IMG/VR virus record: IMGVR_UViG_3300014656_000018
Coordinates: 34,119 to 98,118 of that record
DNA length: 64,000 bases
From: a virus
Reading direction: 5' to 3' (one strand)
A model generated the notes under the pieces. The model searched no databases, was not told the origin of the DNA, and saw only the letters and a list, made by a program, of their open reading frames with translations. Every line of letters starts with the position of its first letter. Within the stretch, counting starts at the first letter, position 1. Positions 4,725-60,339 of this stretch are shown here, piece by piece. The position numbers and the translations under genes were made by a program.

Positions 4725-4766
4725 AGGTTCCCACTCTCCGCAACCAATCAGTTGCCTTTGGTTTGG

Positions 4767-4796: not shown

Positions 4797-4820
4797 CAAG
4801 TAGAAGAATTGCAGACAAAT

Positions 4821-4831
4821 TGGTATAAGAA
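4821..4831 (+). promoter_or_regulatory. TGGTATAAGAA promoter-like motif heading the replication operon
   Basis: The same motif precedes plus-strand units at 56785, 57086 and 60583; resembles an extended -10 element. Confidence 0.6.
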
Positions 4832-4868
4832 AGCTGTAGTGATATAACACCTATACAGGAGTTTTTTT

Positions 4869-9018: not shown

Positions 9019-10039
9019 TGATATCCGTGAGATGGTACATGAGAGACATGATAGGAAATTTCCAGATAAGATAGTAGATCTCAATGAAACAACAATAACG
9101 GAAAACATGCATATACATGTTCCGGGTTTTGGTATCTTGGAACCTACAGACTGGGCTTTGAATCAAATTGGACAATCTCTCGGAATAAAGTGGAAGAAGT
9201 GGTTCGGCCTGTACCAGGAGAATCCCGTAGTAACTGCCAAGGAAGCACAGGAGGAGCTGAGTAGAAGATTCAATCGTATTCCCAATATGGGTAGAATGAT
9301 TCGAGCCAGCCATCATGAAACTGCCAGTGCCAAATCAGATGGTGTTCTGGAAGCCTTTCTCAGCCCAACATACGTACCCATCGATGATGTAAGGATCTTT
9401 GAAAGATTGGCCATCTCCTTCGGAACTCAGATGGATGAAATGATGGTTCTGGACTCTCCTATAAGATCTATCGGTGGGAGGTGGGGATGGGGGTGGGGAA
9501 ATGATAGAACATCCCATTACACATTCATAACCGGGGAGGAGAGGGATCTAGGACAAGACAATGAGACAGATAATCACCTAGCCGGATTTCATATGAGAAA
9601 TTCCGAGTTCGGTGCTGCATCTCTGACTCTGGATGATTTCTGGTTCCGGATCATCTGTATGAATGGTCTGATGGCCATGGTTGATAATGAGAGGCTTCTA
9701 TATAGGCAGCACAGAAACATTGAGAACTCTGATATAGACGACCTGATCAGAGAGGGATTTGGTAAGCTGAAGGGCAGACATGAGAGGGTACTGGGCGCTC
9801 TAATCCGGGGTAAGAATGAGCATATAGCCGATCCGCAGTTTGACCTGGAAGAGGTTCTGAGGAGGGGGAAGCAGAGTGGGAAGCTCATAGAGAAAGCCCA
9901 GCTGGCCTGGGAGGAGGAGGAGGAATTCAGCAGGTTCGGTATGGTACAGGCAATTACCAGAGCTGCCAGAGATATCACCGATCCTGACCACAGATATGAG
10001 CTGGAGCTTCTCGCCGGAAGATTTCTTCTTGTAAACTAG
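8966..10039 (+). CDS. DUF932-family protein
   Basis: FLSPTY..IDD, G..+RNSEFG..SL, FRIICMNG, RQHR and terminal ELE..AGR.L motifs are typical of DUF932. Confidence 0.8.
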   Translation: MPLSLQDLQSSGNLKSFDDIREMVHERHDRKFPDKIVDLNETTITENMHIHVPGFGILEPTDWALNQIGQSLGIKWKKWFGLYQENPVVTAKEAQEELSRRFNRIPNMGRMIRASHHETASAKSDGVLEAFLSPTYVPIDDVRIFERLAISFGTQMDEMMVLDSPIRSIGGRWGWGWGNDRTSHYTFITGEERDLGQDNETDNHLAGFHMRNSEFGAASLTLDDFWFRIICMNGLMAMVDNERLLYRQHRNIENSDIDDLIREGFGKLKGRHERVLGALIRGKNEHIADPQFDLEEVLRRGKQSGKLIEKAQLAWEEEEEFSRFGMVQAITRAARDITDPDHRYELELLAGRFLLVN

Positions 10040-40900: not shown

Positions 40901-41270
40901 AGGCAGAGCTATTGGTACCACCAGCGTGTATAGATCTTCGAAGATCTGTTGCTGCAGTAACAGCATTGCTTAATGCTTTCGTACTGTTGACTAAATATGG
41001 TTTATTGGCCATATCAGTGAGATGGTCAATTAGGTGGCTAGTAGAGGTGTCAAACAGATCTATTTGCTGGAGAAGAGTTCTTACTAGCAGACGACTATAT
41101 GTAAAGACAATATCCGGCTTTTGGAGAAATAGCCAAGCTACAAGCTCATGCATCTCCTCCAATGATAAGAGCCTATCCTGTGAGCCAAAAGGTGTTTCAG
41201 CTAGGGTCGGACCTGTCGGTCCAAATGCAGCTACAGCAAGATCAAGCTCATCATCGGAGTAGTTACTCAT
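37986..41270 (-). CDS. Large structural protein (helical termini, beta-rich modular core)
   Basis: 1094 aa; repeated L.+.VDG/ING and IRS...G..S.I modules. Confidence 0.65.
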   Translation of the reverse strand: MSNYSDDELDLAVAAFGPTGPTLAETPFGSQDRLLSLEEMHELVAWLFLQKPDIVFTYSRLLVRTLLQQIDLFDTSTSHLIDHLTDMANKPYLVNSTKALSNAVTAATDLRRSIHAGGTNSSALTRLTDHINSYIGNELSRSVKLGDAIRTPRDEASEKVKETLLDVLSIYPTILSLALHIEELETIWSDVPINSIAGKGPIGRIITRLEGIKKNPNSRPRAVTLELLASIARMESAVDPVDPFDNRMPEILGTASGVASGTGTPAKIVGTTSAPHTIVGGGNLLVLEINEAAPITFNLPLSQYGTIRTKEFSANIDLVEDTVAELYTNAASPWDFIMFAPGGNITVVGDIVNDPAGNFLVAQPGEVIAITPALVLTGRIETIIDANNVLIESGHSLPAGPSPYVICRDNRLSLSVDGVPHTVQFTLGLNPLTPADVVADIATYVPVVDVAVVFATVRIRSRSGRRPGETSIIIGSYPEAASLLFTVYPISVYGTEGNNHLVLNVNGNLLRKDTGLGTVCTPLYLGAAGPVSMNDISIALNTHADNALFQTYATATAEPSGALALSTKLEGPSAYITAISSIMEPQYYQDFALACSLTTAGNVSVFFCPFIDMYDYMDGYYIRFMAPGTNNPMRISRITGLFNANVYPGEGADRVPDGIYTAFRIYPDLISTCITNTSATTLSIPSDLLVSGADVSNKDLKVYLDSIAGFSGAEVISEVVDRETRYDIVMDDAGVLLSGDPFTGVVTPGDTVQLSGPTGGTFHVVTIDTPAAGDIVLAPAFRDDQKPPTGNTYTLTGRFYFDPLVIRSTDNTVTSAIEVDPGSANVELGFSLGETRGSVSGWSDPALDFVRARVTSPDVLTVPSTGSGLVPFSFTATVKEVSSAHELILTTEIQNNSYGDYRITSLGLEEYKRLCESSSSPVPSWISGTLTGDDGFEANLDKLTNAIAGALSYKDQDRRAAISIATRLRSVWAALQAILSTPTYSAPILEEALEILDTLSDWGLQRGYRLLTEARFSDFFSMTASNVTDAGDVARDLAVLQNTDFSLPSNPAIVDLLSISSSSPSPDADADYTSEIEPLQKASGYEVPDAEETY

Positions 41271-41890
41271 TAAACCAGGCCAAGAGCTTTACGGTTAATT
41301 CCTGGTAGGAAGTGAGGGCCAGTTACCCTACTGCCTCTAGGCATAGAGACAAATGGCTTACCTTCCCTATTGACTATCTTTTTCCCCCCAGGCCTTGCAA
41401 ACTGTGCCCTCAAGTTTATAGGACTAAGTCTAGATTCTACACTGACTCCAGGGATAATAGCCCCCTTGGTTCTCTCAACTGTTGTAGGAGCTTTTCCTAT
41501 AGCTCCCGGAGCCTTCTCTATCAAGCTAGGAGCTTTCTTTCCAAATCTCTTTATGAAATCCAGAATACCGCCTGTTTTTATTGTCCCTATAGAGGGGGCT
41601 GTAGCGGGGGTCAACAGATTAGGACGGGGGGTGATACCCAACCTGTTAAGAGTTTTAGGGGGAGCGCCTGCACGAATGGATCCTGCTAAACCTTTTCTGG
41701 CAAGGCGCTGCTGAGCCTTACCGGCAGCGGACTCTGTTGCTTTTTGCAAACCAGACTTACTAACCTCCTCAACCCATTTGGTTGTGGTATTGACAGCTGA
41801 TGGGCTGATCAACCTTTTGGCTAACATAGGATTAAATGCGGCTATTTTACCCATCTCATCAATATAGGCATCAAACATAAAGTTATCCAT
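41270..41890 (-). CDS. Basic low-complexity protein with D-E-M-x-K-I-A leader (putative internal virion protein)
   Basis: Start MDNFMFDAYIDEMGKIAA (GAGGTG RBS); K/R/G/P-rich body. Confidence 0.65.
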   Translation of the reverse strand: MDNFMFDAYIDEMGKIAAFNPMLAKRLISPSAVNTTTKWVEEVSKSGLQKATESAAGKAQQRLARKGLAGSIRAGAPPKTLNRLGITPRPNLLTPATAPSIGTIKTGGILDFIKRFGKKAPSLIEKAPGAIGKAPTTVERTKGAIIPGVSVESRLSPINLRAQFARPGGKKIVNREGKPFVSMPRGSRVTGPHFLPGINRKALGLV

Positions 41891-41900
41891 AACCATCACC

Positions 41901-42254
41901 TCAAGGAAGATTCCTACCAATCATGTTTATCTCGGAAGCCGTCAAATTCATCACCCAGCTTCTTATTCTAGCTGGGGATAGATTGAACTCCTCACAGAAT
42001 CCCTCAAAGGACATGCTGGATTCCTCACACTCCGAAGGGCAACTCTCGTGACAATCTAGACCAAACAACCATCCAGCTGCATCATCCGCCAATCTTCTGG
42101 ATTTGGAATCCGTCCTTCCTCTGTATAAGACATAGTCACAGACAGCCCTCCACCACACCCTTAGCCAGAGCCTACGATGTGGCTCCAGCTCACTCTCCGG
42201 ATATGGTCCGGGTCCAACAGCATGGAAGCCATACCATTGAACATCAGGTGACAT
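41901..42254 (-). CDS. Conserved phage hypothetical protein
   Basis: RRLW..V...A..D...A..WLF...SF...C...L.P..IR pattern. Confidence 0.65.
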   Translation of the reverse strand: MSPDVQWYGFHAVGPGPYPESELEPHRRLWLRVWWRAVCDYVLYRGRTDSKSRRLADDAAGWLFGLDCHESCPSECEESSMSFEGFCEEFNLSPARIRSWVMNLTASEINMIGRNLP

Positions 42255-43188
42255 TTACCACCAATGCCGGTAAGGAGGATAGAGATGGCTGGTATACTAC
42301 CTCCTGCTCATCAGATCCAAAAGATCTGACAGGGGTGAGTGTACATGAGCCAGTACCCACTGCCATTACTGTCAAGGTAGCGTCTGTATCATCCGTTCCT
42401 GAAACAGTACCTGTAGCTATGGCACTATCACTGGAGGAGATTGTCAAGGGCGCCTCTCCAGTATAGTGGGTAACACCGCTGGAGAAAGTAATCGTAAGGG
42501 AGATGGTCTCTATACTTCCAACAGTCGTAGCCAAAGGACTTACCGGGCTGTAAACAACGTTGGCTACAACAGGATAAAGTACATGAACCAGATTGGCCGA
42601 TGAAGCATCCGGTATTACACAGAGGCCTACATAATCCTCCTGAGTAGATATAATGACATCATACTCAGCATTCCTATATAGATCCACTACAGCGTAGCCA
42701 TCGGAGTCTGTTTGTACATCTCTCTTGTACAGGACAGCCATAGCTGCATTTCCTGACCCAACAATCTGAGGAGTGGGAGGATCCATACGACTGATAAAGA
42801 TTATATGCAGCCCCTCCAGGGGTTGGCCCGCAACATCTACAAAATAACCGGAGCAGCGACACATATTGACATCAGTTGCCACAGGAAGGGTGTGTGTCTC
42901 TCCGGACATGTCAAACGTGTTGCTGGGGTTAGCAGGAGATGTAACCAGTATGGAGCAAGGATTGGTGAAAGATACTCCGGTCTTATAGAATCTGAGCTTA
43001 TATGTAGTTCCCACTACAACACCATCCAGAAGAAACTCTACCTCCCCGGGAGTTCCTCCTGCTCCGGTAACTCCGGAGGTTTGTAGAACCACACCTGTGG
43101 CATCATATACCTGGACAGTTACATCATCGATCGGCTGAGGTATTACCCGCTGATCGGAAACTACAACAGTAACAACCTCAATGGCCAT
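42244..43188 (-). CDS. Ig/prealbumin-fold virion protein
   Basis: V.V.VYD..G......T...G.+.F.L; YFVDVAGQPL; C-terminal Big-like SSSD..IAT. Confidence 0.65.
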   Translation of the reverse strand: MAIEVVTVVVSDQRVIPQPIDDVTVQVYDATGVVLQTSGVTGAGGTPGEVEFLLDGVVVGTTYKLRFYKTGVSFTNPCSILVTSPANPSNTFDMSGETHTLPVATDVNMCRCSGYFVDVAGQPLEGLHIIFISRMDPPTPQIVGSGNAAMAVLYKRDVQTDSDGYAVVDLYRNAEYDVIISTQEDYVGLCVIPDASSANLVHVLYPVVANVVYSPVSPLATTVGSIETISLTITFSSGVTHYTGEAPLTISSSDSAIATGTVSGTDDTDATLTVMAVGTGSCTLTPVRSFGSDEQEVVYQPSLSSLPALVVNVT

Positions 43189-43471
43189 TTTCTTTTTTCC
43201 GTCCGGCTGGGTTTATTCCTTCATGTATCAATGTAGTATTTAATTTATAAGAAAAACCAGAGGGGGGAGCTAATTTTACCCTCAAATTACCTACAGAAAA
43301 ACTTTCGTCAGGAAGAAGATCGAAAGATTTATTCTGAACCCTCTCTAGATTTTTATATTTGTACACATCCAGTTGGGCAGCACCCCTACCTCTTCTAATT
43401 ATCTGTTTACGTATGCCCTTAATTGGTCTTACAACCTGTAACACATAAGCATGTAAAGAAATATTTATCAT
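43178..43471 (-). CDS. Small basic hypothetical protein
   Basis: AT-richer ORF filling the gap between two paralogous genes. Confidence 0.5.
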   Translation of the reverse strand: MINISLHAYVLQVVRPIKGIRKQIIRRGRGAAQLDVYKYKNLERVQNKSFDLLPDESFSVGNLRVKLAPPSGFSYKLNTTLIHEGINPAGRKKENGH

Positions 43472-43483
43472 CAGCTAACCCTA

Positions 43484-44518
43484 TCAAGGCCTTGGTGAAA
43501 GTACCAAGGTATTGTCCTGAACTATGGTAAATAAATCCTGCTCTGATCCCATGAGGGTCAGGAGATTTGCTGTGCTGGAATCTGGAATCGTTATATCTCT
43601 CACTATTCCAGTCCCCTCTATAGACACTGTTACTTCTGCTTCCCGTACCAGCACCATGGAAATCAAACCAGTATTGTCTGTTGTAAAGGTTGAGTTGTCC
43701 CCAAGTACACCTTTACTGGATCTGATAGATGGGGAAAATTTATTCCGTACAAATACCTTCAATCCCCTTAAAGGCTGGCCAGCAAGATCAACAAAATAGG
43801 TAGTAACAGTGCAGAGATCCGTACCATCTAGTGGAGTCCCAGGACTCCACTCCGGCTCAAAGGATGCTCCCTCAAATACAACTATATTAGGATCGGCTGC
43901 AGCAGTAGATAGATCAGGATCTACTACTGAGTGGTCTTTGTTATTCTGATCAAACAAACGATAGGAGTTGGAAGCGTCGCGAATGCTGAATGTATAATCA
44001 CCTACCCCTAAATTGAAGTAGACTCTACCTTGACCATTGGTGTAATCAGTCTGCAGCCTCTGGCCAGTATCCGCATCGGAGACAAGCACCTGGATGTCTT
44101 TGAGGGCAGCTACTATCTCAGATGGTGTCTCAAAACCATAAACTACAGGAACAGTCTCTATGACATCTACTCGAACAGAATAGACTCCGGTACCTGGTAC
44201 AGGCACAGCTGGGGGATCCGATACTGTGATAGTCTGAGTCCTGGTGGTGACAGGATCCCCAAGCTCCTCTACTACGTACCACTTGTCATAGTAGGTTCCT
44301 GCTGTATCTATCTCACTGCACAGGACACGATATATTCCAGTGCTGACGTGTATTACTGATATTCCGGAAATAGTCTCAACAACGGCTAAAGCAGCATTCA
44401 AGATCTCTACCTGATAAACGCTCTCCAGATCTTCCAGAGCGCAGGTCAAAGGATCCCGTATCTCAATATCCAGAATTACCTGATCACCAGTTACAGCATT
44501 GGCCCTGAATACAGCCAT
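43484..44518 (-). CDS. Ig/prealbumin-fold virion protein, paralogue of 42244-43188
   Basis: Shares C...YFVD.AGQPL.GL and TD..G.....L.R.AE..V.I...G....IPD.S.ANL. Confidence 0.7.
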   Translation of the reverse strand: MAVFRANAVTGDQVILDIEIRDPLTCALEDLESVYQVEILNAALAVVETISGISVIHVSTGIYRVLCSEIDTAGTYYDKWYVVEELGDPVTTRTQTITVSDPPAVPVPGTGVYSVRVDVIETVPVVYGFETPSEIVAALKDIQVLVSDADTGQRLQTDYTNGQGRVYFNLGVGDYTFSIRDASNSYRLFDQNNKDHSVVDPDLSTAAADPNIVVFEGASFEPEWSPGTPLDGTDLCTVTTYFVDLAGQPLRGLKVFVRNKFSPSIRSSKGVLGDNSTFTTDNTGLISMVLVREAEVTVSIEGTGIVRDITIPDSSTANLLTLMGSEQDLFTIVQDNTLVLSPRP

Positions 44519-45183
44519 TACATGCTCTCCCGAAGGCGCTTCTGAAATTTCTTCTCCACGTTCCGTCCTCTTTGATATTGAATGAGAGCACCTCCCCCAC
44601 CCATTGCACCACCGGCTGCCAAGGACAGCAAACCATTCTTGTAACCATCAGCCACTATTGGTATGGCATTCTTAGCCCACGCTGGATGCATAACCTCCGG
44701 AACAGTGGTCTTGAATGCTCCCTTCAGTGGGGCTGCAGCATCGTCAATCATGAACTGGATAGCTTTGATCTCCTGCCCACTCAGCTTCTTGGCCTCTTTT
44801 GAAGCTGCTGCATCAATTAAAGCATTCAAAGCCCTCTTTCCATTTACCAGCTGCTGTATTGGCTTCTTTGCTCCAGCCAGAAATCCCCTGGCTATGCTAC
44901 TGACCAGCTGGCCTCTGGTTGCTCCAGTAGCGGCTCCGGCTACACCACTTACCAGAGTAGGAAGAACTACCGCTCCACCAAGAATACCGCCAAGAACACC
45001 CAGGCCTGCCTTAGCTCCGTGAGTAGCTGGAGAGACCTTGGCCCTCTCTGCTTCCTGACCATACTCTGCGGTCCACAGGCCAACAGGATCTGCTCCGGCC
45101 AGAAAATCTTGGGGATAAGAAGATACCTTGGATATCTTTTCCATCTCAACACAATAGGCTTCCCAAGAGATTCCATTAAGCAT
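44518..45183 (-). CDS. Glycine-zipper membrane-like protein with E-M-E-K-I-S leader
   Basis: MLNGISWEAYCVEMEKISK; GVLGGILGGAVV and AAGGAMGGGGA segments. Confidence 0.7.
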   Translation of the reverse strand: MLNGISWEAYCVEMEKISKVSSYPQDFLAGADPVGLWTAEYGQEAERAKVSPATHGAKAGLGVLGGILGGAVVLPTLVSGVAGAATGATRGQLVSSIARGFLAGAKKPIQQLVNGKRALNALIDAAASKEAKKLSGQEIKAIQFMIDDAAAPLKGAFKTTVPEVMHPAWAKNAIPIVADGYKNGLLSLAAGGAMGGGGALIQYQRGRNVEKKFQKRLRESM

Positions 45184-45192
45184 AAGTTACCT

Positions 45193-45420
45193 CTACGAAA
45201 GAAAATCCTCTATCTTCTCCGCCACAATTACCCTCATACCCAGGTCGGCTCTAGACTTCAGCTTTCCAGCACCCCTACCTTTCTGTACCAGGCGGAGGAA
45301 AGCTACTTGCTTATCTATTCTATCCAACTCTCTCCGGGTAAGCTCCTCAAACTTCTGAGCAAGAGCATCTATCCTGGTATTTCTTTCCTGAACCTTTCTG
45401 GATATAGCCGTAGTGCTCAT
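45193..45420 (-). CDS. Small coiled-coil hypothetical protein
   Basis: ATGA overlap with the sigma gene stop. Confidence 0.6.
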   Translation of the reverse strand: MSTTAISRKVQERNTRIDALAQKFEELTRRELDRIDKQVAFLRLVQKGRGAGKLKSRADLGMRVIVAEKIEDFLS

Positions 45421-46250
45421 CTCATGTACCTCTCAACTTTATCCGAAATCTTCTTCCGGATACGTGAGATCTTGGAGGGGCTCATATGAAGCTTGGAAGA
45501 TATCTGTCCCGGAGACAGAGCAGGTGCTCCACTGAGGCCGAAGGTATGTCTGTATACCTGCAGCTCCTCCGGAGTTAACTCATACTGAATGAGCTTCATT
45601 ACCTCCTCCGCACGGGATGGCTCAAGCTTATTGGGATCCTCCTCAAAAGCAGAAGTACCTATATCTTTCCGGATCTCGGAAGACATCCTGGCTATCTCTG
45701 CAGGCTTCCAGCTGAGATGCTTAGACAGCTCATCGATGGTGGGAGGTCTACCGAGCTGCTCATCCAGATAGGACTGAGCTGTTTCAAACTCCCGGATCTT
45801 ATATATCCTGTTCTCGGGAATTCTGGCTATGTTCTGATAGTTGGCAATGAAACGCTTCGTTTTATCCAGATACTTATAGACATAAGTACCAAGAGAGCCT
45901 TTGCTGGGGTCATAGTGATCAAGGGCCGCCAAAAGCTGCCTCTTATACTCCATGTCTATAGCAGCTGGAGGAATACGCACCAGCCCCTTATACATCGCCG
46001 CTTTCTTCTGAAGCATCCTCTCAAATGACTTCAGAAGGGGTCTCATATCTTCCGGCTTCTTACCTCCCTGCTTCCATATTAACCAAAGCTCCTTCTCCTT
46101 CTTCTGCTGCACTGCAAGAGGGGTATCCTCATCCTCCTCTGTCCGGACATAGCCGGAAACAGGCTTTCCTTTTCTCAGATGGGGGCGTACACGCTCCTGC
46201 CTGGTGGCAGCCGTCTTGTACTGAAGTAGCCTGTTAACAGCTCTACTCAT
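45417..46250 (-). CDS. Sigma-70 family RNA polymerase sigma factor
   Basis: Region 2 ALDHYDPSKGSLGTY, RIP, region 3 LGRPPTIDELSKHL, region 4 LTPEE..V....FGL...ISSKLHMSPSKISRIR; start ATG 46250. Confidence 0.9.
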   Translation of the reverse strand: MSRAVNRLLQYKTAATRQERVRPHLRKGKPVSGYVRTEEDEDTPLAVQQKKEKELWLIWKQGGKKPEDMRPLLKSFERMLQKKAAMYKGLVRIPPAAIDMEYKRQLLAALDHYDPSKGSLGTYVYKYLDKTKRFIANYQNIARIPENRIYKIREFETAQSYLDEQLGRPPTIDELSKHLSWKPAEIARMSSEIRKDIGTSAFEEDPNKLEPSRAEEVMKLIQYELTPEELQVYRHTFGLSGAPALSPGQISSKLHMSPSKISRIRKKISDKVERYMR

Positions 46251-48444
46251 GACCAACCGGTGCCAGCTTGCTAAAATCAACTGGTTTGGGGACCTTCTCC
46301 GGATTAAACATTCCCTGAAACTTTCCCACACCCTGATCCCTATGAAGCTTACCTATAATCTTTTGTTTCAGTCCTCCAATATCAGTTACGGCCAGCTGCT
46401 TAACCTGCGGAGAAAACTTATCCGTCTTCTTGGTCAGCCCAGAAGTCTTCTCCTTATCAGAGGTGTCTTCCAATTTTCCGGCCTCCAGAAAGCTTTTACC
46501 TATCTTATCCGCTAATGTTTTTCTTTGCCCAGCATCCAACTTGAAAACCTTTTTATTGTTGGCTGCAGCAGCTCCTTTCTCCACAACCATTCCATGCTCC
46601 GTAGAGGTACTATCATACGATCTTTGAGCTGTATGGGGCTCAAGGTTGGGTTGAGTTTCCGGTATGTCTGCTCTTGCCTTATAAAGCAGGGCCATCCTCT
46701 CAATTTTCTTACGCCGCTTTTTACTACTCTTGTTCGTGGGAAGCTGATCCCCCAAGGCTTCCTGATAGTCTTTCTCATTTAGCCCAAACTCTTTTGCTTC
46801 AACATTTGCCCTCTTACGCTTGTCTGTATTTTTCCTTTTAAGGAGGATATTCAATATAGCCATTCCTATACCTGCCTGCTTACCTTTCTCCAGATGCCAA
46901 TCCGAGAATGATGGAGCACGCAGTGCACCCTTTCCTCGCATCTTCTCCAGGGATAGAACCTTGGCAACCCTACCTTTATATCTATCCGGATATGCCTTCA
47001 TATCTCTGAGAAGCTCATGGCTGAAGCCTGTTCCAACCCGACCGATAGCCGGAGAGTCCGGATGCCATGAGTAGGTAAACCCACCAGCCCTATCCAACTC
47101 TTTACCATCTTTACCGTAGGCAGGAAATACATCCTGAACATATACGTCAAAGTCCGGACGATGCTTGGCCTTGGTAGGAAATGGCTTATCCTTGTCCCAG
47201 ACAATCACACCCTCCTTCGTCTGGGGATTCCTTCCCTCCTTGATGGCATCAAAAAGCTTTCTCTTCTCTATAGGATTCTCTGCGGTATCTGGAAGGTGAA
47301 ATACTTTCTCCCGGCCTGCTATCTCTCTCAAGATACGAAGCTTCTCTGTGTAACCTAGCTGCTCTGCAGGCTTGCCCTTGTGTTTCACAACGTCGAACAG
47401 AGCTGTGGTCAGGTGACCTTTCTCCTCCTGCAGCTCTCTGGATTTCCACACCCCGGCATTCAACATTCCCCCTATATCTTGAGCCGGAATAGCCTGACCC
47501 TTACGATCTACAGCATAGACCTCACCACGAAGAATCGTATCTCCGGTTTCCTTGGAGGCCCTGTGTCCTATAATTCCCGGTACCTTGTGTGTGTACTCTA
47601 TGATTCCGGTATCTCTCTCGGTGGGACGATAGGAGAAGATGCGTGTCTGCTTACCAGGCTTCAGGGATAGTAAAACATGTGCTCCATCTACCTTGGCCTG
47701 TACAATCTCATTGTCCCTATTAAAATCTACCTTCTCTGGCTTCATCTCCTTATATGGAGGCTTACTTGATGGGAGATCGGGCCTTCTCTCCCTGGTAGCA
47801 GTTACATTCTGAAGAAGCCATTTCGTAGGACCACCAGTTCTTCGGAGAATGTACTCAGAGGAATCCTTACCTCTGTAGATATTGAATTTGATAAGATCCG
47901 GATCAGAGTAGGTTATCTCTGTCCTTCCCCGTTCCTGCAATTTTACGGTCCCCTTACCATACCCCTCTGCAAGTACACCCTTATAATCCATGTATGGGAT
48001 AGTATGATCACCCTGTCTGATAGCTAGAAGATGTTCACCGGGAGCAGGCAATATAGCTTTTGGAATTGCCCAGGAGTGGGCTACACCTGTTCTAGGATCC
48101 CCCAACCTCAGATCTAGATGTCTTCCAGCCTTTACTGCAGTATGATCCTGTACAGCCAGCTCCCATATTCTTCCAGAGCCCTCCTCTATCTTGGGTAGGG
48201 AGGTTATATTACCTTTGACCGGAAGTCCGGGAGCAAACTCTTTGCTCTTGTTCTCCGACTGCCTTCTATAGCTGGAGACGAACTTACCCTCTCTGAAGTG
48301 GCCCTTCACCCACTCCACCCCAGCTACCTTGGACATCTCTGCCCTGGCCAGGACTCCGCCCAGCTTGCTCTCCATGTGGGTGTAGCAAAGATGATTGATC
48401 AGAGAGCTATCTCTGCTGAAAAAGTTGTCCAGAGGATTGGTCAT
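46243..48444 (-). CDS. LigD-type 3'-phosphoesterase fused to ATP-dependent DNA ligase
   Basis: PE domain VQDH.A...H.DLRL, SWAIPK, LAI...DH...Y..Y.G....GYG.G.V; ligase motifs KVDG, RGEV, FDV, EGVI, KAK; OB-fold VGTGFS, LRAPSF. Confidence 0.9.
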   Translation of the reverse strand: MTNPLDNFFSRDSSLINHLCYTHMESKLGGVLARAEMSKVAGVEWVKGHFREGKFVSSYRRQSENKSKEFAPGLPVKGNITSLPKIEEGSGRIWELAVQDHTAVKAGRHLDLRLGDPRTGVAHSWAIPKAILPAPGEHLLAIRQGDHTIPYMDYKGVLAEGYGKGTVKLQERGRTEITYSDPDLIKFNIYRGKDSSEYILRRTGGPTKWLLQNVTATRERRPDLPSSKPPYKEMKPEKVDFNRDNEIVQAKVDGAHVLLSLKPGKQTRIFSYRPTERDTGIIEYTHKVPGIIGHRASKETGDTILRGEVYAVDRKGQAIPAQDIGGMLNAGVWKSRELQEEKGHLTTALFDVVKHKGKPAEQLGYTEKLRILREIAGREKVFHLPDTAENPIEKRKLFDAIKEGRNPQTKEGVIVWDKDKPFPTKAKHRPDFDVYVQDVFPAYGKDGKELDRAGGFTYSWHPDSPAIGRVGTGFSHELLRDMKAYPDRYKGRVAKVLSLEKMRGKGALRAPSFSDWHLEKGKQAGIGMAILNILLKRKNTDKRKRANVEAKEFGLNEKDYQEALGDQLPTNKSSKKRRKKIERMALLYKARADIPETQPNLEPHTAQRSYDSTSTEHGMVVEKGAAAANNKKVFKLDAGQRKTLADKIGKSFLEAGKLEDTSDKEKTSGLTKKTDKFSPQVKQLAVTDIGGLKQKIIGKLHRDQGVGKFQGMFNPEKVPKPVDFSKLAPVGHE

Positions 48445-53179: not shown

Positions 53180-56100
53180 TTAACCTTCTTCCTTGGTTGG
53201 TCCCTTCTCCCCCTTCAGCTCCATGACATAGCCTTGAACCAACCTGGTGTGCTCTATCAAAGTCTTTGACCACTCATCAGCCTGCTTGAACACATCACCT
53301 ATGCCCCCTGTCTTACCACTACCTGTAGCAGGTCCTTTATACCCCGCCATAGCAAGCTCGGTAGCCACAGCCCTCCTCTCCTCCTTGGTATATCCACCGG
53401 ATGCTGCACCGGCTATCTTTGCTGCAGCTGCAGCTGCCTCCGGACCTTCTCCCAATCTCCTGGTGAGAGCCTCCTGAAGATCTCCTGTATCCCCAGTATA
53501 GGCTTTCTTTAGCATCTCATCACTGGCACCTGGGAGGATATCTCTCATCTGAAGTGCAAAACCCTTTGCACTTACCTTCCCTTTCCCGCCAGCCTTGGCC
53601 AGCCTCTCCTCCATACTGAGAACAGCATAGCCCATTTGACCCAGACCCATACTCGAAGCAAATCCGGAGAGCTTCATGAAGCTTTCTTTGGATGCTCCAC
53701 TTGCAGATAGCAGCTTCTCCAGAATTTCTCTCTGGCTGGTTATTGTCCCTACAAAGGCTTCCTCATCCCCTGCAGCTCTACTTATAAGCTGCTCGGCTGT
53801 CTTTCCGAACTCTCCGGTAGCAAATTCAGAGATAAAACGTCTCTTCTCAGAGCCCCACATAGCTGCATGTTGAGCAAATCCCTCTTTGGACATAGCAATG
53901 CTGGTAAGACCTGGAAGGTCTCTGGTCATACTTCTAATAGAATCCATACCCTCTCTTTTTGCTCTTTCTGCCATAACCCTTAGAGTTGCAGCTTCTCCCT
54001 CATTGACCTCTGTCCCAAAGTATTTCGACATCTGAGCAGGAGTCATGGTAGCCAGATTTTTTATAGCGTTTTCATCTTCTGAGGCAAGCATGCCTAATAT
54101 CTTCTTCCCAATATCACCCTTCTGTAAAACAGCTAAAGTCTGCTGGTTTTCATTACTGACAGATAATTCTCTACCAGAAACACCAAGTACCTTTTTACTT
54201 GATAATCTTTCAACAAAGGTAGCAAGGTCCTTCTGTCTCCTCTCCTCAGTCATCTTGCCAGTGAAGCCACCATAGCCAGCTACCTTAGCAGCAGCACCGA
54301 TATCAGGAGTATAAGCAGTACTTGCCCCAGTCCGTCTCATCAGCTCTACTACATTTTGGGCTGCACCGGGACCGGTCATGAGAGATCCAAGAGGACCACC
54401 CTTGCCAGCAAGAGCTGATGCCATTGCCCCCAATCTTTTCCCCACATCACCAGTCTCTCCTTCCCGAGCAATACCCATACCTAGCTCAGCTTCACCCAGC
54501 TGAGAAACGTCACGGCTAAATTGTTTATCAATCTCAGAACGGCCTTCTACAGACATGCTTCTCAGTGCTTCAGTAGGACCACCAAATACAGCACGAGCCC
54601 TCTCTAAACCACCGAACTGGGAAGCCAATGCTTGCTGCTCACTTCCACCTATTGTCTCATTGAGCCACTCACCGGCAGCAAAGCCCATCCTTGCACCACC
54701 ATATGTACCCAAACCCATACTGACTACAGTTCCTGCAGCCCCTCCGACCAAACCTCCTCCTAAAGCGAGTAAGCCACCACCTCTTCCTGGTGTTACCCCT
54801 CCTGTTGCCCCTCTGAAGTCACCTGAAAGAACCCCGAGATTTCCCCGTCTGCCTGCTGCACCCATATTGGCAACATCTGTACCTGTCACTCTATAGGACT
54901 CAGTACCGGTCACTCTGGAAAGTACATCTTCCGATACTTCGGCAGTCCAACGTCCGATATCCGATCCGGCTTCTTGGAGAGCTTTCCCTATACGTCCAGT
55001 TGTTGAATCTACAATTCGCCTCTTTACTGCATCCCATGAGGCGTGCTCTTTTATGAATGACTCTCTCTCAAGAGCTATTGCAGCCTGAGCACCCTTCTGC
55101 TTCAACTGGGTATGTATCTCCCCTCCCTTCCGGGCCAGATCCATGATCAGCTTTGACTGCCTGCGGGAAAGACCGGAGTACTGCTCTTCTATCATCTCCA
55201 GAATATTTTCATCGGGCTCCTTATCCAGCCTATCCCCAACCTTCATACGTACCTGTCCGGCAAGGGCAGCTAGAGGTCCTGCCTGCTCTACAAACTCTCC
55301 CCGGAGATCCTCTATATTTGCCCGCAGCGCATGCTTACCCCTTCTGGTTTTAGTTCTGGATTTGAACCTCTTGAGCATATCTGCTTTGGACATCGATCCG
55401 GATAGATAAGACTGCATTGCTTCCGGATCCAATCCAGTGCCCTGCTCATTCATCAAGGCACCCATGGTCTTGTACCCAAGACGACTACTGACAGATCTAT
55501 AAGCAGCTCCCATCACACTTTGAGAGAGGGCAGCTACAGCTTCCTCCCCAAGTAACCCACCCGTGGCCTCAGAGATCTGCTCCTCGGAGAATAGACCCAT
55601 CTGTTGGCCTGCACCTATCATTCCTACAGCACCGCGCATTGCTCCAACACCACGAGCACCGGTAGCACCAAAGGCCCTTCCTATCTGGGCACCTCCCTGC
55701 ATCATGCTCATCATTCCCTGAGAGCTGATACCAGCGGACATGGCGGTCAGTCTATTGGATTGAATTCCAGACCGGATAGCTCCGGAGGTGTACATACCCA
55801 TCTGCTTGTGCTGTTCAAGCAGGGGGACAGCTTCCTGGAGAGAAGTATGGAATATCTGAGAGATCTCTTTCAGCGTCTCCACTGTCTCCTTGAACTTGTT
55901 ACGGAAATCTTTAACACTCTGGGTCATGCGAAAATGACCACCACCAATCAGGCTGCCCATCGTTCCCTGTAGATCATTGAAATCTACCCCACCCCCTCCC
56001 ATACCCCGCATCATATTAGTGATACCGCCAATATCACCCTGGTTGAACCCCATTGCTCCGGGACCTACCATTCCTGGCATCATTGATCGCTGAACACCAC

Positions 56101-56725
56101 CGAACATGGCCTGGGTAGATGAGAACTGCTGGGCACCGGTCATCATTTGATTTCCGGCGTAATCTACAGCTGCTCCTATAGCTGCATATGGGGCTGCAGC
56201 TAAAAGACCTGCTCCTATTCCCCCCGCAAGACCTCCAGCTATAGCTCTTCCACCTAAAGAAGGGACAGCTCCAATAGTTGATAGGAGACCCCCTCCTCCT
56301 CCCCCAAGAGTTGCTATTTGAGCACCTGTTACTCCGGCACCTCTCCAAAATCCTTGAGTGATTGATTTCCCTACCGTTGTTATAGGATCCAGCAAGCTGT
56401 GACCCATTATGGGAGTACCCCAATTCATACCTGTCTTACCAGCCATGCCCAAGAAGCCGAGACCCATGCCAGCTACGCCCAGACCAGCCTGGCCTGCTCC
56501 GATAAGGTGTTGACCAGCCTCAGCTCCAAATGCTCCGGGCGCTACCTGACCGGTAAATACAGATCTGGGGTCTGTCATGCTTACCGATGGAAATGTCGGT
56601 GGAGTAGCAGAACCATCTGCTATCCCGGCCTGCACCCCTATCTGTTGAGAGTAAGCAGCAGCATTACCGAACATTGCCTGCTGGTTCTGCATGAGCTGGG
56701 CGGTGTCGTTAGAAGATATAGGCAT
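53180..56725 (-). CDS. Tape-measure-like protein
   Basis: 1181 aa, G/A/M-rich helical sequence with glycine-rich hydrophobic segments; first gene of the tail cluster. Confidence 0.7.
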   Translation of the reverse strand: MPISSNDTAQLMQNQQAMFGNAAAYSQQIGVQAGIADGSATPPTFPSVSMTDPRSVFTGQVAPGAFGAEAGQHLIGAGQAGLGVAGMGLGFLGMAGKTGMNWGTPIMGHSLLDPITTVGKSITQGFWRGAGVTGAQIATLGGGGGGLLSTIGAVPSLGGRAIAGGLAGGIGAGLLAAAPYAAIGAAVDYAGNQMMTGAQQFSSTQAMFGGVQRSMMPGMVGPGAMGFNQGDIGGITNMMRGMGGGGVDFNDLQGTMGSLIGGGHFRMTQSVKDFRNKFKETVETLKEISQIFHTSLQEAVPLLEQHKQMGMYTSGAIRSGIQSNRLTAMSAGISSQGMMSMMQGGAQIGRAFGATGARGVGAMRGAVGMIGAGQQMGLFSEEQISEATGGLLGEEAVAALSQSVMGAAYRSVSSRLGYKTMGALMNEQGTGLDPEAMQSYLSGSMSKADMLKRFKSRTKTRRGKHALRANIEDLRGEFVEQAGPLAALAGQVRMKVGDRLDKEPDENILEMIEEQYSGLSRRQSKLIMDLARKGGEIHTQLKQKGAQAAIALERESFIKEHASWDAVKRRIVDSTTGRIGKALQEAGSDIGRWTAEVSEDVLSRVTGTESYRVTGTDVANMGAAGRRGNLGVLSGDFRGATGGVTPGRGGGLLALGGGLVGGAAGTVVSMGLGTYGGARMGFAAGEWLNETIGGSEQQALASQFGGLERARAVFGGPTEALRSMSVEGRSEIDKQFSRDVSQLGEAELGMGIAREGETGDVGKRLGAMASALAGKGGPLGSLMTGPGAAQNVVELMRRTGASTAYTPDIGAAAKVAGYGGFTGKMTEERRQKDLATFVERLSSKKVLGVSGRELSVSNENQQTLAVLQKGDIGKKILGMLASEDENAIKNLATMTPAQMSKYFGTEVNEGEAATLRVMAERAKREGMDSIRSMTRDLPGLTSIAMSKEGFAQHAAMWGSEKRRFISEFATGEFGKTAEQLISRAAGDEEAFVGTITSQREILEKLLSASGASKESFMKLSGFASSMGLGQMGYAVLSMEERLAKAGGKGKVSAKGFALQMRDILPGASDEMLKKAYTGDTGDLQEALTRRLGEGPEAAAAAAKIAGAASGGYTKEERRAVATELAMAGYKGPATGSGKTGGIGDVFKQADEWSKTLIEHTRLVQGYVMELKGEKGPTKEEG

Positions 56726-56751
56726 GTACTCTCCCTACTTTACCAGCTCTC

Positions 56752-56796
56752 AGCTTATACCAGTGAAAGAGAGACCTCAAGCTTTGGTATAAGAAT
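56752..56796. promoter_or_regulatory. Back-to-back TGGTATAAG motifs (divergent promoters)
   Basis: CTTATACCA at 56754-56762 (minus copy) and TGGTATAAG at 56785-56793 (plus copy). Confidence 0.6.
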
Positions 56797-56821
56797 AATA
56801 GAGAGGCAACATAGGAGGAAC

Positions 56822-57010
56822 ATGATGATGATATGGGAAGATAGAATACTGCGAGGTTCCTTCTGCACCCGTTGTGGTGCGGAAGGAGGCCGGGTCGTGA
56901 ACGACCCGGCCTGTGAAGAGAACATCTGCCCCGTATGCGGGGCAGAGGAGCGGCGACGACTCGTCCAGCCCGACACCGAGCATCTCCCCGACGAACATCT
57001 CCCCAAGTAG
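56822..57010 (+). CDS. Small zinc-ribbon protein
   Basis: AGGAGG RBS; CTRCG...CPVCG. Confidence 0.7.
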   Translation: MMMIWEDRILRGSFCTRCGAEGGRVVNDPACEENICPVCGAEERRRLVQPDTEHLPDEHLPK

Positions 57011-57037
57011 CCATCAAGTCTCCCATCCCGGGAGCAC

Positions 57038-57061
57038 AGCCCGTAAGGGCTTTCTTTACCT
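57038..57061 (+). terminator. Hairpin terminator
   Basis: AGCCC-GTAA-GGGCT then TTCTTTACCT. Confidence 0.65.
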
Positions 57062-57085
57062 GGTAAAAATATACTTATTGGATTG

Positions 57086-57101
57086 GGTATAAGAATATTG
57101 A
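57086..57101 (+). promoter_or_regulatory. GGTATAAGAATATTGA promoter-like motif
   Basis: 16-nt identity with 60583-60598. Confidence 0.65.
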
Positions 57102-57199
57102 GGAGGAAATCTAGGAGGACCAAACGCCGGTAGGGCATCATCTCACAGCGACGTGGGGGATGTGTGTCCTGCCCAAGTGAAAAAAACAAGGAGGGTACG

Positions 57200-58312
57200 G
57201 TGTTACCCGTAAGTATAAATAATTATTATGGGGATCCGCTCCACCCGGAGCAGGTCCCCAACACAATAGGAAAGCTCGTCCGCCTACAGGCGGACGGGCA
57301 CAAGGGCCCCGTGGCCCTCATCACCAAGGGGTGGGCCAGTCCCGTGCTGGCCCACAAGTTGAAAGAGGAAAGCCCCGAGGGCCTGGTGGCCCTCATTAGC
57401 ATCTCCAACTGTGTAGGGCAGCTGGAGCCGGTCCCCATCAATAGGCGAATGGAGACCATGAGAAACCTGGTCGGGGCTGGCATCCCGACCATCGCCTACA
57501 TCCGTCCACTGATCGGAGTGGACGGATTGGAGAGACTGTTCACCCTGGTGGCCGGCACCGGGGTGAGGACGGTGATCATTTCGGGGTTTCGTGCCCCGGA
57601 ATCGATTGCTGAGAAGATGGGGGTCGGCGGTGCCTCCGTCAGAGTGAAGCAGATGCCGCCGAGTGCTCGGAGGATCTGCCAGGAGCAGTGCAGCCTTCAC
57701 GGGCTGCAACTGTTCGAGCGCACGGCCTGTGGGGCGGCCTACGCTCTGGGGATTCCACGCCCGTGGAATCCCTACTGGATCTCGCCCCACACGGCAGGTT
57801 GCCTGAGCTGCCCACTGCGGGCGACCTGCTACGACGCCAAAGAACCGCAACCCTCCCGAGAGGGGATGGATCTGGTAACCCGTCTGGGCTACCAACCCAT
57901 CCTCCAGCCGGGCGGAGCCTCCCGGTGCAGCGTCCAGCCGGACAGACGGCTGGAGTGTCTCAGCTGCTGCACAAGCTGCTTCCTGATCGACCGGCCAAGG
58001 GTCGATCTTCGAGCACCGGGAATGACTCTGGGGGATGTGGCCTTCTGCCGCTTCCTTCTCGGAGGCGTCCTGGTGTCCTCACAGGGGGTGGTGGACGGAG
58101 GAGACCCGAAGGTGGGTCATGTCAACCCACCTAACCTGCGATGGCCAGAAGGTGTTGAGGTTCACGCCATCAACACCTGGCTGCCCCTGGCAAAACAAAC
58201 CTCAAAGTGCTTTGGGTGCAGGTACTGCATCACTCCGCACTTTGAGAACGTAAATAGGGAGTACGGCATGTTCCCAAAGGACATGCTCGAATGGGTGTAC
58301 TCCCATGTTTGA
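57200..58312 (+). CDS. SPL-like radical-SAM-related protein, Cys-rich, cluster motif at C-terminus
   Basis: GTG start after AAGGAGG; GDP, ITKG, ISIS...LEP....R, IRPLI, SGFR core; terminal CFGCRYC. Confidence 0.7.
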   Translation: MLPVSINNYYGDPLHPEQVPNTIGKLVRLQADGHKGPVALITKGWASPVLAHKLKEESPEGLVALISISNCVGQLEPVPINRRMETMRNLVGAGIPTIAYIRPLIGVDGLERLFTLVAGTGVRTVIISGFRAPESIAEKMGVGGASVRVKQMPPSARRICQEQCSLHGLQLFERTACGAAYALGIPRPWNPYWISPHTAGCLSCPLRATCYDAKEPQPSREGMDLVTRLGYQPILQPGGASRCSVQPDRRLECLSCCTSCFLIDRPRVDLRAPGMTLGDVAFCRFLLGGVLVSSQGVVDGGDPKVGHVNPPNLRWPEGVEVHAINTWLPLAKQTSKCFGCRYCITPHFENVNREYGMFPKDMLEWVYSHV

Positions 58313-59192
58313 GACGGGATGTCCCATTGGGTGCAAGTACTGCATGGCGACCATGGTCAGGTCCCGTGCAGCCCAATGGGCTGCTGGGAACAGGATTGGT
58401 GTGAATCGGTCCTGTTCATTCATCAATCGACTTCCCGGAGAAACTGCCCTCCGGGATTGGGTGAATCCTGGGATGTTTGCAGGGGACGTCCTTGGGTTCC
58501 AAGGGATCACTGATCCCCTGCTGCCCATATTCCAGGAGGATCTCTCCTGGCTGATCTCGACTGTGGCCAGCAGTCGGATCAGGAAGCTGATGCTGGCTAC
58601 CAAATTTCCACGCCACAATGCGTTAGCAGGACTGGCATCTCTCAAAGAGAAGGCGCTGCTGGTGGTTTCGATCACCGGGCTGGACAGCCTGGAGAAAATC
58701 ACCAGCAGGAAGAGGATCGAGCTGGCGGCAGCTGCTCAGGGGATGGGGATACCCACGATAGCTGCGGCACACCCCTGGATTGAGGGGGTATCTGACCCGG
58801 AGATATTCCAGCAAATCTCTGAAGCCGGGGTTCGGCAGGTCGTAGTAAAAGGGTTCCGCTACGACCCATGCTTTGAAACATGGGCCCCTTCTAACATTCC
58901 CGCCGCTGCACTCTCGGTCTACAGGGAGGCGGGAAATAATGAGACGCTGCTCGGCTCTCCCAAGCAGCTGGCAATAGAGGCGGGCCTGGAGCTGGTAGAT
59001 TTGAAATCTATCGCCCAGGCCCCAAACGGGATACGAGGAGTAACTACTGAGGAAGCTGCTGAATCTGTTAGACAGATGAGGCAGCTGGGGGTGGTTGTCT
59101 CCTCCTCTTCCCCAGAAAAAGTATGGAAGGAAGTACAGACCCGCCGCATTCAGGGTGGTCTATACTTCCGAGGAGGAAGAGATGTTCTTTGA
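58305..59192 (+). CDS. SPL-like radical SAM protein
   Basis: CPIGCKYC (CxxxCxxC), TDP, ATK, VSITG...LE....RI, HPWI.GV, KGFR. Confidence 0.8.
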   Translation: MFETGCPIGCKYCMATMVRSRAAQWAAGNRIGVNRSCSFINRLPGETALRDWVNPGMFAGDVLGFQGITDPLLPIFQEDLSWLISTVASSRIRKLMLATKFPRHNALAGLASLKEKALLVVSITGLDSLEKITSRKRIELAAAAQGMGIPTIAAAHPWIEGVSDPEIFQQISEAGVRQVVVKGFRYDPCFETWAPSNIPAAALSVYREAGNNETLLGSPKQLAIEAGLELVDLKSIAQAPNGIRGVTTEEAAESVRQMRQLGVVVSSSSPEKVWKEVQTRRIQGGLYFRGGRDVL

Positions 59193-60339
59193 TGCGGCTG
59201 CGTCAGCACAGCCCCGGCCCACGGTAATGGAAGCCGTCATGGCCTTCATGGTCATGTACGGCTCCATCCATCGTGGAGCCGGAGAAAGGTCCAAGGAATC
59301 TTCCCGGGCGTATGAAGAAGCCCGGGAAGAGGTAAAACAGTTCCTCAAGGCCACCGACGAAGATGCCGTCGTGCAGGTGGCCAACACAACAGACGGCATC
59401 AACAGGTTGGCCCAGATATTGGCCCCCCAGCTGGGGGGTGGCTCGGTGTTGGTTAGTGACATCGAGCATTCAGCGAATGACCTCCCCTGGCGCCGGGTGG
59501 CCAGGGTAAGAAGATTTGAAACACCCAACTTCAAAATAACAGCGGAGAGTGTTGATCTGGCACTCTCCGCCAACAGTGACATTCGCCTTGTGGCCGTAGC
59601 TGGGGCGAGTAACATCACGGGACAGATCGTGGATGCAGGGGCAATCCATGAGGTCTGTCAAAGGCACAACGTGCCCCTATTCTTCGACTGCTCCCAGCGG
59701 GCGGCTCATGCCGAGTGCTCGCTGAGGGACTGCGAGATGCTGGCCTTCTCCGGACACAAGATCGGAGCACCTTTCGGTGCAGGAATTTTGGCGGGAAGAA
59801 GGTCCCTTCTGGAGACCTCCCACCCGTACGTGGGTGGAGGATCGGTGGTGTATACCACCGATGACAAGGAGTACCACAAACCTGCCCCGGAAGGGATGGA
59901 GGTGGGTACTCCAAATGGTGGCGGGATGGTAGCGGTAGCTGCCGCATGTAGAGAGATCATGCGGCAGGGTTACTCTGCCATCCGGGAGCACGACCGTGCA
60001 GTGGAGGGGTGGTACAGGCAGTACATGCCCCTCCATGAGCTGGACGTGTGGTTCCTGGAGGGAACCACACTGGTGTTCAGGCCCAGGGAGGGGTCTGCGA
60101 AGCAGCTCTCCGAGCGCCTGGGTAGGCTCGGAGTCGAGCACCGCTTTGGGGCCTTCTGCGTGTATGGCGCAGTAGCCCGGAAGATGGGTGTTGACAGGGA
60201 GTCAGTGGAACAGGAAGTTCTGCTGACAGGAAAGTTACCAAAGGAGTTCGGTGCTCTCAGATTGAGCGCCGAGCATTTTGTGGGTCAGGACACGGTAGCG
60301 GAAGCTGCCCTGTGCCTGAGTATGGCTGTGAAAGAGTGA
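59182..60339 (+). CDS. Cysteine desulfurase-like class V PLP enzyme (SufS-like)
   Basis: FDAAAS, HRG, NTT..IN, EH.AN..PW, ASNITG, D.SQ, SGHK (PLP Lys), GTPN, RFGAFC (catalytic Cys position); ATG 59182 after GGAGG. Confidence 0.9.
   Translation: MFFDAAASAQPRPTVMEAVMAFMVMYGSIHRGAGERSKESSRAYEEAREEVKQFLKATDEDAVVQVANTTDGINRLAQILAPQLGGGSVLVSDIEHSANDLPWRRVARVRRFETPNFKITAESVDLALSANSDIRLVAVAGASNITGQIVDAGAIHEVCQRHNVPLFFDCSQRAAHAECSLRDCEMLAFSGHKIGAPFGAGILAGRRSLLETSHPYVGGGSVVYTTDDKEYHKPAPEGMEVGTPNGGGMVAVAAACREIMRQGYSAIREHDRAVEGWYRQYMPLHELDVWFLEGTTLVFRPREGSAKQLSERLGRLGVEHRFGAFCVYGAVARKMGVDRESVEQEVLLTGKLPKEFGALRLSAEHFVGQDTVAEAALCLSMAVKE

Follow-up and report, generated by a model that had tools for sequence, protein, structure and literature searches.

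We examined a 64,000-nt stretch of viral DNA (hereafter the window), the last 64 kb of the 98,118-bp IMG/VR virus record IMGVR_UViG_3300014656_000018 (CheckV completeness 53%), whose source is an uncultivated phage of ~185 kb. Within its minus-strand late operon (window 21.4-56.7 kb), which includes a Baseplate_J protein, an initial annotation had drawn attention to four unrelated genes that begin with a short leader ending in K-x-A or a similar signal, and had proposed that their products are loaded into the head, matured by a protease and delivered with the DNA. These genes, all on the minus strand, encode a 216-aa basic orphan protein (41270-41920; likely start ATG at 41890), a 221-aa protein composed of a leader and a module starting D-F-x-A-G-x-D-P-x-G (44518-45183), a 277-aa sigma-70-family factor (45417-46250) and a 733-aa LigD-like protein (46243-48444). 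All four quoted leader strings were recovered in place on that strand, and three of them share E-M-x-K-[IV]-[AS]. As to the proteins themselves, the 216-aa protein is basic (K+R 34, D+E 13), the 221-aa protein has a glycine-zipper, hydrophobic, transmembrane-like helix at residues 56-85, and the sigma factor and ligase are identified by Pfam and PHROG matches together with AlphaFold2 and Foldseek for the former and a family profile for the latter. The leaders are genuine, and had been described both too narrowly and too broadly. As judged from alignments, there is a portable N-terminal leader ending K-x-[AS] that is carried by unrelated late proteins and conserved across families.

A strict N-terminal tag in the late operons

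The leaders of the 216-aa and 221-aa proteins conform to a strict tag, Y-[ILVC]-[DV]-E-[MFY]-x-K-I-[AS], for which a six-frame translation of the whole 98-kb contig yielded six matches, compared with a mean of 0.000 in residue shuffles. Each of the six lies in a minus-strand open reading frame (ORF), 10-37 aa from the upstream stop, and all belong to late minus-strand operons, with none in 21 replication genes. The two tags in the window, found by regular expression, are Y-I-D-E-M-G-K-I-A of the 216-aa protein (41840-41866, minus strand; its Tyr is residue 9 from the ATG at 41890) and Y-C-V-E-M-E-K-I-S of the 221-aa protein (45130-45156, minus strand), scoring 38.7 and 39.0 bits against a position-specific scoring matrix. 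Outside the window, tags occur on 108-aa and 271-aa ORFs flanking the scaffold-like genes and the major capsid protein (MCP) gene, and on 48-aa and 122-aa ORFs flanking an SNF2 helicase beside the gene for the large terminase subunit (TerL). All six score 35-40 bits with the matrix; the next best segment, at 12.5 bits, is an internal copy in an acidic scaffold-like protein of 274 aa, and this internal tag-like helix is also found in orthologues of that protein. A pattern built from only the two window tags retrieves a third copy elsewhere in the contig.

Selection acts here on the peptide and not on the DNA, for the flanking DNA differs from tag to tag and the third positions of codons vary. 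The tag segment scores as an amphipathic helix (hydrophobic moment of the 216-aa protein's tag, 1.05 as a helix versus 0.65 as a strand). Tagged proteins are mostly basic, and several of the basic ones have glycine-zipper hydrophobic segments.

Searches beyond the contig showed how local this form of the leader is. An exact DNA pattern for Y-x-D-E-M-x-K-I-[AS] gave 16 matches in IMG/VR, none of them an N-terminal tag; two were the internal motif of an orthologue of the scaffold-like protein, and most of the 16 we take to be a ClpX-like ATPase-type motif. Enrichment at N-termini, which the initial annotation had named as a check across the genome and its relatives, holds for the strict tag within the contig (6/6) but not for a relaxed (type-A) regular expression across 65 ligase loci of related phages, whose clades use other leaders. 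Comparison of N-termini within loci as 10-mers under BLOSUM was too noisy (0.72% of N-terminal pairs versus 0.41% of internal pairs). For the 216-aa protein there was no Pfam, PHROG or Atlas match and no homologue in the 65 related loci, an Atlas look-up of the tagged 271-aa protein yielded nothing usable, and a full-text literature search with the tag strings returned no paper.

Leaders of the sigma factor and the LigD-like ligase

The sigma and ligase leaders do not match the strict tag, and the evidence for them comes from family alignments. For the sigma factor, the gene-caller start is at 46250 and the open frame continues to 46331; it matches phrog_351 (E 8e-13) and Sigma70_r3, and its AlphaFold2 model, with a predicted local distance difference test score (pLDDT) of 88.5, matches the sigmaA and sigmaS chains of holoenzyme complexes (Foldseek probability 1.0, ~250 columns), the sigma 2-3-4 helical domains of the sigma-70 family being present. 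The leader helix spans residues 1-15 (46206-46250, minus strand) and ends K12-T-A14 (46217-46209), with a separate helix predicted by AlphaFold2 at residues 3-14. Among 89 homologues (28-71% identity) the leader has the family form [ND]-P-[VIL]-x-[DE]-F-L-(xx)-K-x-[AS], of which that in the source phage is a degenerate version: K is present in 83/89, A or S in 88/89, F in 78/89 and L in 77/89, and the conservation of the K and A/S positions equals that of the sigma core. Two homologues, P0183 (442 aa) and P0210 (482 aa), are far longer than the others, and P0183 has a precomputed InPase match, whereas none is on record for P0210; at least one phage thus has its sigma factor joined to a domain of polyvalent proteins.

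The LigD-like protein consists, in order, of a leader, a basic beta-module, a 3'-phosphoesterase (PE) domain, an ATP-dependent ligase, a K-Q-A junction and a 209-aa basic variable tail. It matches LigD_N (E 8e-11), DNA_ligase_A_M (E 2e-7) and phrog_114 (E 9e-15), and the family profile matches the LigD PE structures 3P4H and 3N9B as well as DNA ligases. Within the family H101, H109, D111, R113, H147, Y151 and K251-x-D253-G254 are invariant or nearly so; they would supply the His/Asp/Arg/Tyr catalytic set of the PE domain, as in Pseudomonas aeruginosa LigD, and the K-x-D-G adenylation motif of the ligase domain. Pfam and PHROGs scans of the protein detected no primase-polymerase domain of the kind in full bacterial LigD, and neither tblastn of the ligase against cultured phages nor a single-protein search of viral contigs with it found anything.

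Its leader, residues 1-41 (48322-48444, minus strand), starts with the sigma-type N-P-L-D-x-F-F and ends A-E-M-S-K-V-A, with E-M-S-K-V-A at 48339-48322, and the closest homologue, P0002, retains a leader segment ending S-K-M-A-G. In homologues with a 12-90-aa leader, K-x-[AS] was found at most 16 aa upstream of the PE domain in 44 of 56 (79%), against 6.4% of control windows. Leader helices vary by clade and share the ending; at locus L009, four or five proteins encoded within 20 kb have a leader of the form G-x-x-L-A-A-L-A-D-L-G-L-x-K-x-A. Several unrelated proteins of related phages start with a third recurrent motif, M-P-[FY]-[KS]-S-x-A-Q-R-[RA]-x-x-x-A (L014 8849-9967; L037 5507-11311; L040-L045 ~9230), one carrier being a 1934-aa polyvalent protein.

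K-x-[AS] at module junctions and in head proteins

The K-x-A signal is one of position and context, not of overall frequency. Bare K-x-A occurs 5.33 times per 1000 aa in late proteins versus 5.64 in replication proteins; the initial annotation had held that a motif no more frequent than in replication proteins would speak against its proposal, and in that wording the result does. What it had said of the end of the ligase catalytic region was borne out, KQAG (residues 522-525, 46881-46870) being a conserved junction feature, with K-Q-A itself at residues 522-524 (46873-46881, minus strand). Every ligase homologue that extends at least 60 aa past the core has K-x-[AS] in the 28-aa junction window (49/49), compared with 12.7% of windows inside the core, and many standalone homologues end just before the junction position. 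Fusion partners in the homologues (L004, L006, L029, L037 and many with P identifiers) are InPase, SNF2, NUDIX, GNAT and 2H-SAK; the source-phage ligase has only PE-ligase and a non-domain tail, and the partner modules are separate genes. That tail (window 46246-46872) is very rich in Lys and Arg, is unconserved even in the 70%-identical P0002, and occupies the position of enzyme domains in other phages.

The module of the 221-aa protein behaves similarly. A word-index homologue search found only the protein itself, and an exhaustive search found a family of 180 representatives, in which K-x-[AS] lies at most 18 aa upstream of the module in 76/94 standalone and 29/36 internal copies (81%); many of the standalone leaders read F-x-D-E-[LM]-x-K-I-[AS]. 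At L004, a 221-like module (residues 473-696, E 1e-12) is internal to a ligase polyprotein, a 1329-aa polypeptide that runs from the ligase core through K-T-A-G to this module and then to InPase and an SNF2 helicase. By these comparisons, the source phage encodes as separate genes, each bearing a leader of its own, what is elsewhere a single polyvalent protein.

The motif is also concentrated, at conserved positions, in scaffold-like or core proteins of the head module. A 395-aa protein (3663-4850, minus strand), the '4724' protein that had been credited with six motifs, has 10 K-x-A and 11 K-x-[AS], the latter against 3.1 in shuffles (p = 4e-4). Seven of the 11 share an alignment column with a site in the 29%-identical orthologue of G001, a 180,825-bp relative (99% complete) that is syntenic with the source phage at 25-45% identity, where 0.26 would be expected by chance, and at the conserved sites K and A are kept while the middle residue is free. 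K-x-[AS] is likewise enriched over shuffles in a 647-aa protein, a 585-aa ORF and several small head-module proteins, and not in the MCP, ligase, PolA, DnaB, RNA polymerase (RNAP) or large tail proteins. In the N-arm of the MCP the source phage has E-K-I-A, with which E-K-L-A of G001 aligns.

A candidate prohead protease

The search for a prohead protease, to which the initial annotation had pointed, led to the 585-aa ORF (genome 7673-9430), which lies upstream of the window and heads the scaffold-like gene cluster. In the AlphaFold2 model of residues 1-345 (pLDDT 63.6, predicted template modeling score 0.60, core 75-90), three chains of T4 gp21 were the top Foldseek matches (probability 0.99-1.0, E 2.6e-3), with the next match at E 0.18 and the human cytomegalovirus (HCMV) protease lower. 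VIA, which is independent of Foldseek, matched residues 1-266 to T4 gp21 (5JBL_A) at Z 9.9 and a root-mean-square deviation of 3.2 A over 148/165 residues, followed by the varicella-zoster virus (VZV) protease at Z 6.0; the proteases of HCMV and Kaposi's sarcoma-associated herpesvirus were also listed. According to these models, the head module encodes a protease of the gp21/herpesvirus-assemblin fold. Seven orthologues all keep H117, S173 (in S-M-G) and D260, the family has one copy in each of 20 related records (14/14 of those at least 90% complete), and the N-terminus has K-x-A, mostly as K-T-A-S, in 7/8 orthologues. When every ORF of the head module was scanned with Pfam and PHROG, no protease was found, the sole match being a weak one to phrog_80 (E 0.019) in a scaffold-like 248-aa ORF.

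In G001 and L026 an intein follows directly after S-M-[GA]-C of the protease. G001, L026 and G020 all have inteins beside the putative Ser nucleophile, and in G003 the gene is in four pieces within a 1679-aa frame; the protease gene lies at 14277-17003 in L076 and at 8881-11772 in L026. The ORF at 7673-9430 had also been considered as the portal, an assignment rejected after the fold search.

A basic beta-module shared by the sigma factor and the ligase

Directly after the leader, both the sigma factor and the ligase have a basic beta-module with the core H-x-R-x-G-K-x-V-x-x-Y-x-R, located at 46140-46199 in the former (minus strand; from AlphaFold2 and alignment) and, in the same short form, at 48262-48318 in the latter (minus strand; from the sequence motif). 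In the sigma model it forms four short strands (residues 18-37, pLDDT up to 93), and it is present in about 57 of the 89 sigma homologues; no Pfam family matches it. The length form co-varies between the two proteins in three genomes, short in both for the source phage and long in both for L027 and L032, and only within the source phage's clade do both proteins have the short form. This agreement within genomes suggests, from the sequences, a common partner for the two proteins.

A proposed head-targeting and processing code

We see an even chance that the leaders constitute a head-targeting and processing code like the T4 capsid-targeting sequence (CTS), with Ala at P1; from the motif, where it lies, how well it is conserved and the modeled fold of the protease, we infer targeting, cleavage, the P1 residue and ejection. 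The four leaders would then belong to an addressing and processing code for head morphogenesis in a clade of uncultivated phages of ~130-215 kb. The address would be a short amphipathic N-terminal helix, in the source phage hydrophobic-x-x-Y-hydrophobic-D-E-M-x-K-I-A, which, similar to the internal helix of the scaffold-like protein, would recruit unrelated proteins to the prohead's scaffold core. The divergent gp21/assemblin-fold prohead protease would recognize the terminal K-x-[AS] and cut probably after Ala, as at the x-A↓S sites of herpesviruses. Such a protease would trim the leaders and separate the modules of polyvalent fusions, degrade the scaffold-like multi-site proteins, and trim the MCP N-arm and its own N-terminus. 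The cargo remaining in the head would comprise the basic protein, the glycine-zipper membrane-helix protein, a sigma factor for the phage's fused beta-beta' RNAP, the LigD-like end-healing ligase and probably also the SNF2 helicase, and would enter the host with the DNA; the sigma factor and ligase would bear the shared basic beta-module in addition. In virion preparations of Salmonella phage Arash, the nearest cultured phage (30% identity in TerL, 31% in sigma), RNAP beta, beta' and the sigma factor gp10 (467 spectra, 100% coverage) were detected (PMC10585845).

In T4, gp21 degrades gp22, gp67 and gp68; it also clips short N-terminal peptides off IPI-III and Alt, shortens gp23 by 65 residues and removes its own N-terminus (PMC9958956). 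The layout here parallels that of T4 point for point, with another motif, and most likely functions as the T4 CTS system does. Both have a short N-terminal leader on unrelated, non-essential head proteins that ends at a protease site (here, candidate head proteins and a candidate site), a site repeated in scaffold core proteins and present once in the MCP, and a gp21 fold with an N-terminal site of its own; for Alt, the injected transcription-modifying enzyme of T4, the proposed counterpart is the sigma factor. The differences are the motif, K-x-A/S rather than L/I-x-E, and an unrelated leader sequence; a protease that is invisible to the S77 profile, has a ~300-aa C-terminal region fused to it and often hosts an intein; and a proposed cargo that includes a sigma factor, a LigD-like ligase and an SNF2 helicase. 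No conserved Glu of an L/I-x-E site was found at the leader end in the sigma, ligase or glycine-zipper families, and the leaders' ending in K-x-[AS] agrees with the initial annotation's view of a lysine-based motif distinct from the Glu-P1 motifs of T4 and phiKZ.

The phages phiKZ, 201phi2-1 and SPN3US (gp175/gp245; A/S/G-x-E) are similar in that their large heads are filled with numerous internal or ejection proteins, a virion RNAP among them, and in their N-terminal propeptides, some of only 20-24 aa and the long ones with multiple sites; they differ in their Glu P1, in a split multisubunit RNAP that has no sigma, and in that no shared short portable tag has been described for them. Herpesvirus assemblins belong to the same fold family, the VZV protease being the second-best structural match, and cut at (V/L/I)-x-A↓S, where P1 is Ala and P1' is often Ser. 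Such sites are resembled by many of the K-x-A-S sites here, whereas P3 would be Lys here and both the host and the virus lineage are different.

Polyvalent proteins of the InPase type are fusions predicted to be packaged and injected, according to Iyer et al. 2017 (PMC5512222). The likeness lies in ligase homologues fused to InPase, SNF2, NUDIX, GNAT, 2H-SAK and peptidase domains among virion genes; the differences are that the modules here are separate genes that each bear a leader, and that the paper describes neither the PE-ligase module nor the sigma fusions, nor, in the parts searched, a K-x-A junction code. The cargo-loading peptides of encapsulins are similar in that a short portable peptide sends unrelated cargo into an HK97-fold shell, but they are usually C-terminal and uncleaved, and encapsulins have neither scaffold nor protease.

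The leaders could instead stay uncut, as docking or linker elements whose helix binds a shared partner (scaffold, portal, RNAP or chaperone) and whose K-x-A is a C-cap or contact. We consider this unlikely, although an amphipathic helix predicted to stand apart before the sigma core and the internal copy in the scaffold-like protein and its orthologues both suit it, as does the virion RNAP of N4, packaged unprocessed according to PMC5512222. Docking leaves unexplained the presence of K-x-[AS] at all 49 fusion junctions, the standalone genes that stop just before the motif, and the many positionally conserved copies in scaffold-like proteins together with a gp21-fold protease.

Alternatively, a phage protease might cut at K-x-A for a polyprotein-style maturation or activation of late enzymes instead of head targeting, the enzymes either working in the producing cell or residing in the tail or baseplate. 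The junction motif does make the multidomain fusions resemble polyproteins, the genes are in a tail/baseplate operon with Baseplate_J nearby, and there is synteny with gp8-gp10 of Arash, recognized by N-terminal sequence resemblance only; this role is nevertheless rather improbable, given that gp21-family proteases act inside proheads (PMC9958956), that strict tags also mark small head-module ORFs beside the scaffold-like genes and the MCP gene, and that the MCP itself has the motif. We give very little weight to leaders that are membrane-association or host-directed signals (for a pore or conduit, or for lysis timing) unrelated to capsid assembly: several basic tagged proteins do have glycine-zipper hydrophobic segments, but the leader has no signal-peptide-like hydrophobic core, the sigma factor, ligase and helicase are soluble nucleic-acid enzymes, and the motif is common to scaffold-like proteins and the MCP. 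Chance or compositional resemblance between four unrelated leaders sharing a common tripeptide, already rejected for the strict tags, retains next to no probability, since the similar frequency of bare K-x-A in replication proteins and the failure of two leaders to match the strict tag stand against six strict tags where 0.000 are expected, family-wide conservation of K and A in leaders, and the motif at 49/49 junctions.

Several observations weigh against a head-targeting and processing code. In G001 (L027) and G002 (L032) the sigma factor and ligase begin directly with the longer beta-module and have no helical leader; because the module occurs without the leader in these related phages, the helix may not be the only or the main determinant for the two proteins. 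The Arash sigma factor, with 100% peptide coverage, is likewise without a leader, and the 116 proteins detected in Arash virion preparations may be unspecific (PMC10585845). The leader genes lie in a tail/baseplate operon, and a tail location is possible. K-x-A alone is too weak a descriptor: the protease-bearing ORF is itself enriched in it and would be destroyed if every site were cut, and the motif by itself is therefore insufficient. E-K-h-A is natural in helices rich in Lys, Glu and Ala, and some of the enrichment may have a compositional or structural origin. As for the protease, the model is only moderate (pLDDT 63.6, from a 7-sequence alignment), a profile search of PDB sequences missed gp21, and the S77 and S78 profiles had no match in the source contig, nor had S77 in three and S78/ClpP in four records of relatives at least 93% complete. 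Its co-occurrence with the leaders in the compared phages is not independent evidence, as these are all relatives.

A wider proposal, which we hold somewhat more tentatively than the head-targeting code, is that a divergent gp21-fold protease, with Ala-P1 specificity like that of herpesviruses, uses K-x-[AS] as its cleavage code and that this code, together with clade-specific leader helices, defines the complete injected proteome of a large group of uncultivated phages of ~180 kb, readable from sequence. The injected kit would consist of the fused beta-beta' RNAP, sigma factor, SNF2 helicase, LigD-like end-healing ligase and proteins of a membrane conduit; the cutting of polyvalent proteins into modules would be explained as well, and the beta-module would be a second, independent docking signal. 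If true, the head cargo of these phages could be read from sequence alone, a lysine/alanine-based head-protease code would join the glutamate-based codes of T4 and phiKZ, and the protease specificities of phages and herpesviruses would be linked. It would also account for the splitting of polyvalent phage proteins into modules and imply that a phage sends in, together with its genome, a sigma factor and a DNA end-repair ligase of its own, and the 10-18-residue portable tag would offer a practical handle by which to load foreign proteins into the heads of laboratory phage strains.

Genome context

The replication module occupies the plus strand at window 5.5-21 kb and encodes a helicase, UDG, DnaB, primase, PolA, a RecA-like protein and a Cas4-like nuclease. 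Upstream of the window are the genes for TerL, the MCP and RNAP, the MCP being assigned from a weak match to phrog_2522 (E 4e-7) and 43% tblastn identity to its counterpart in G001. The RNAP is a single 2063-aa ORF (genome 22619-28810) in the virion operon that fuses beta (Rpb2_6, E 2e-58) and beta' (Rpb1_2, E 9e-22), and its N-terminus (L-N-P...K) is similar to the sigma-type leader in both the source phage and G001. The T4-portal profile matched nothing in the source genome or in four near-complete relatives; a 642-aa ORF at genome 29982-31910, with 37% identity to its G001 counterpart (E 1e-164), may be the true portal. Toward the end of the window, at 56000-60000, G+C rises from ~0.48 to ~0.57 across a radical-SAM/desulfurase cassette.

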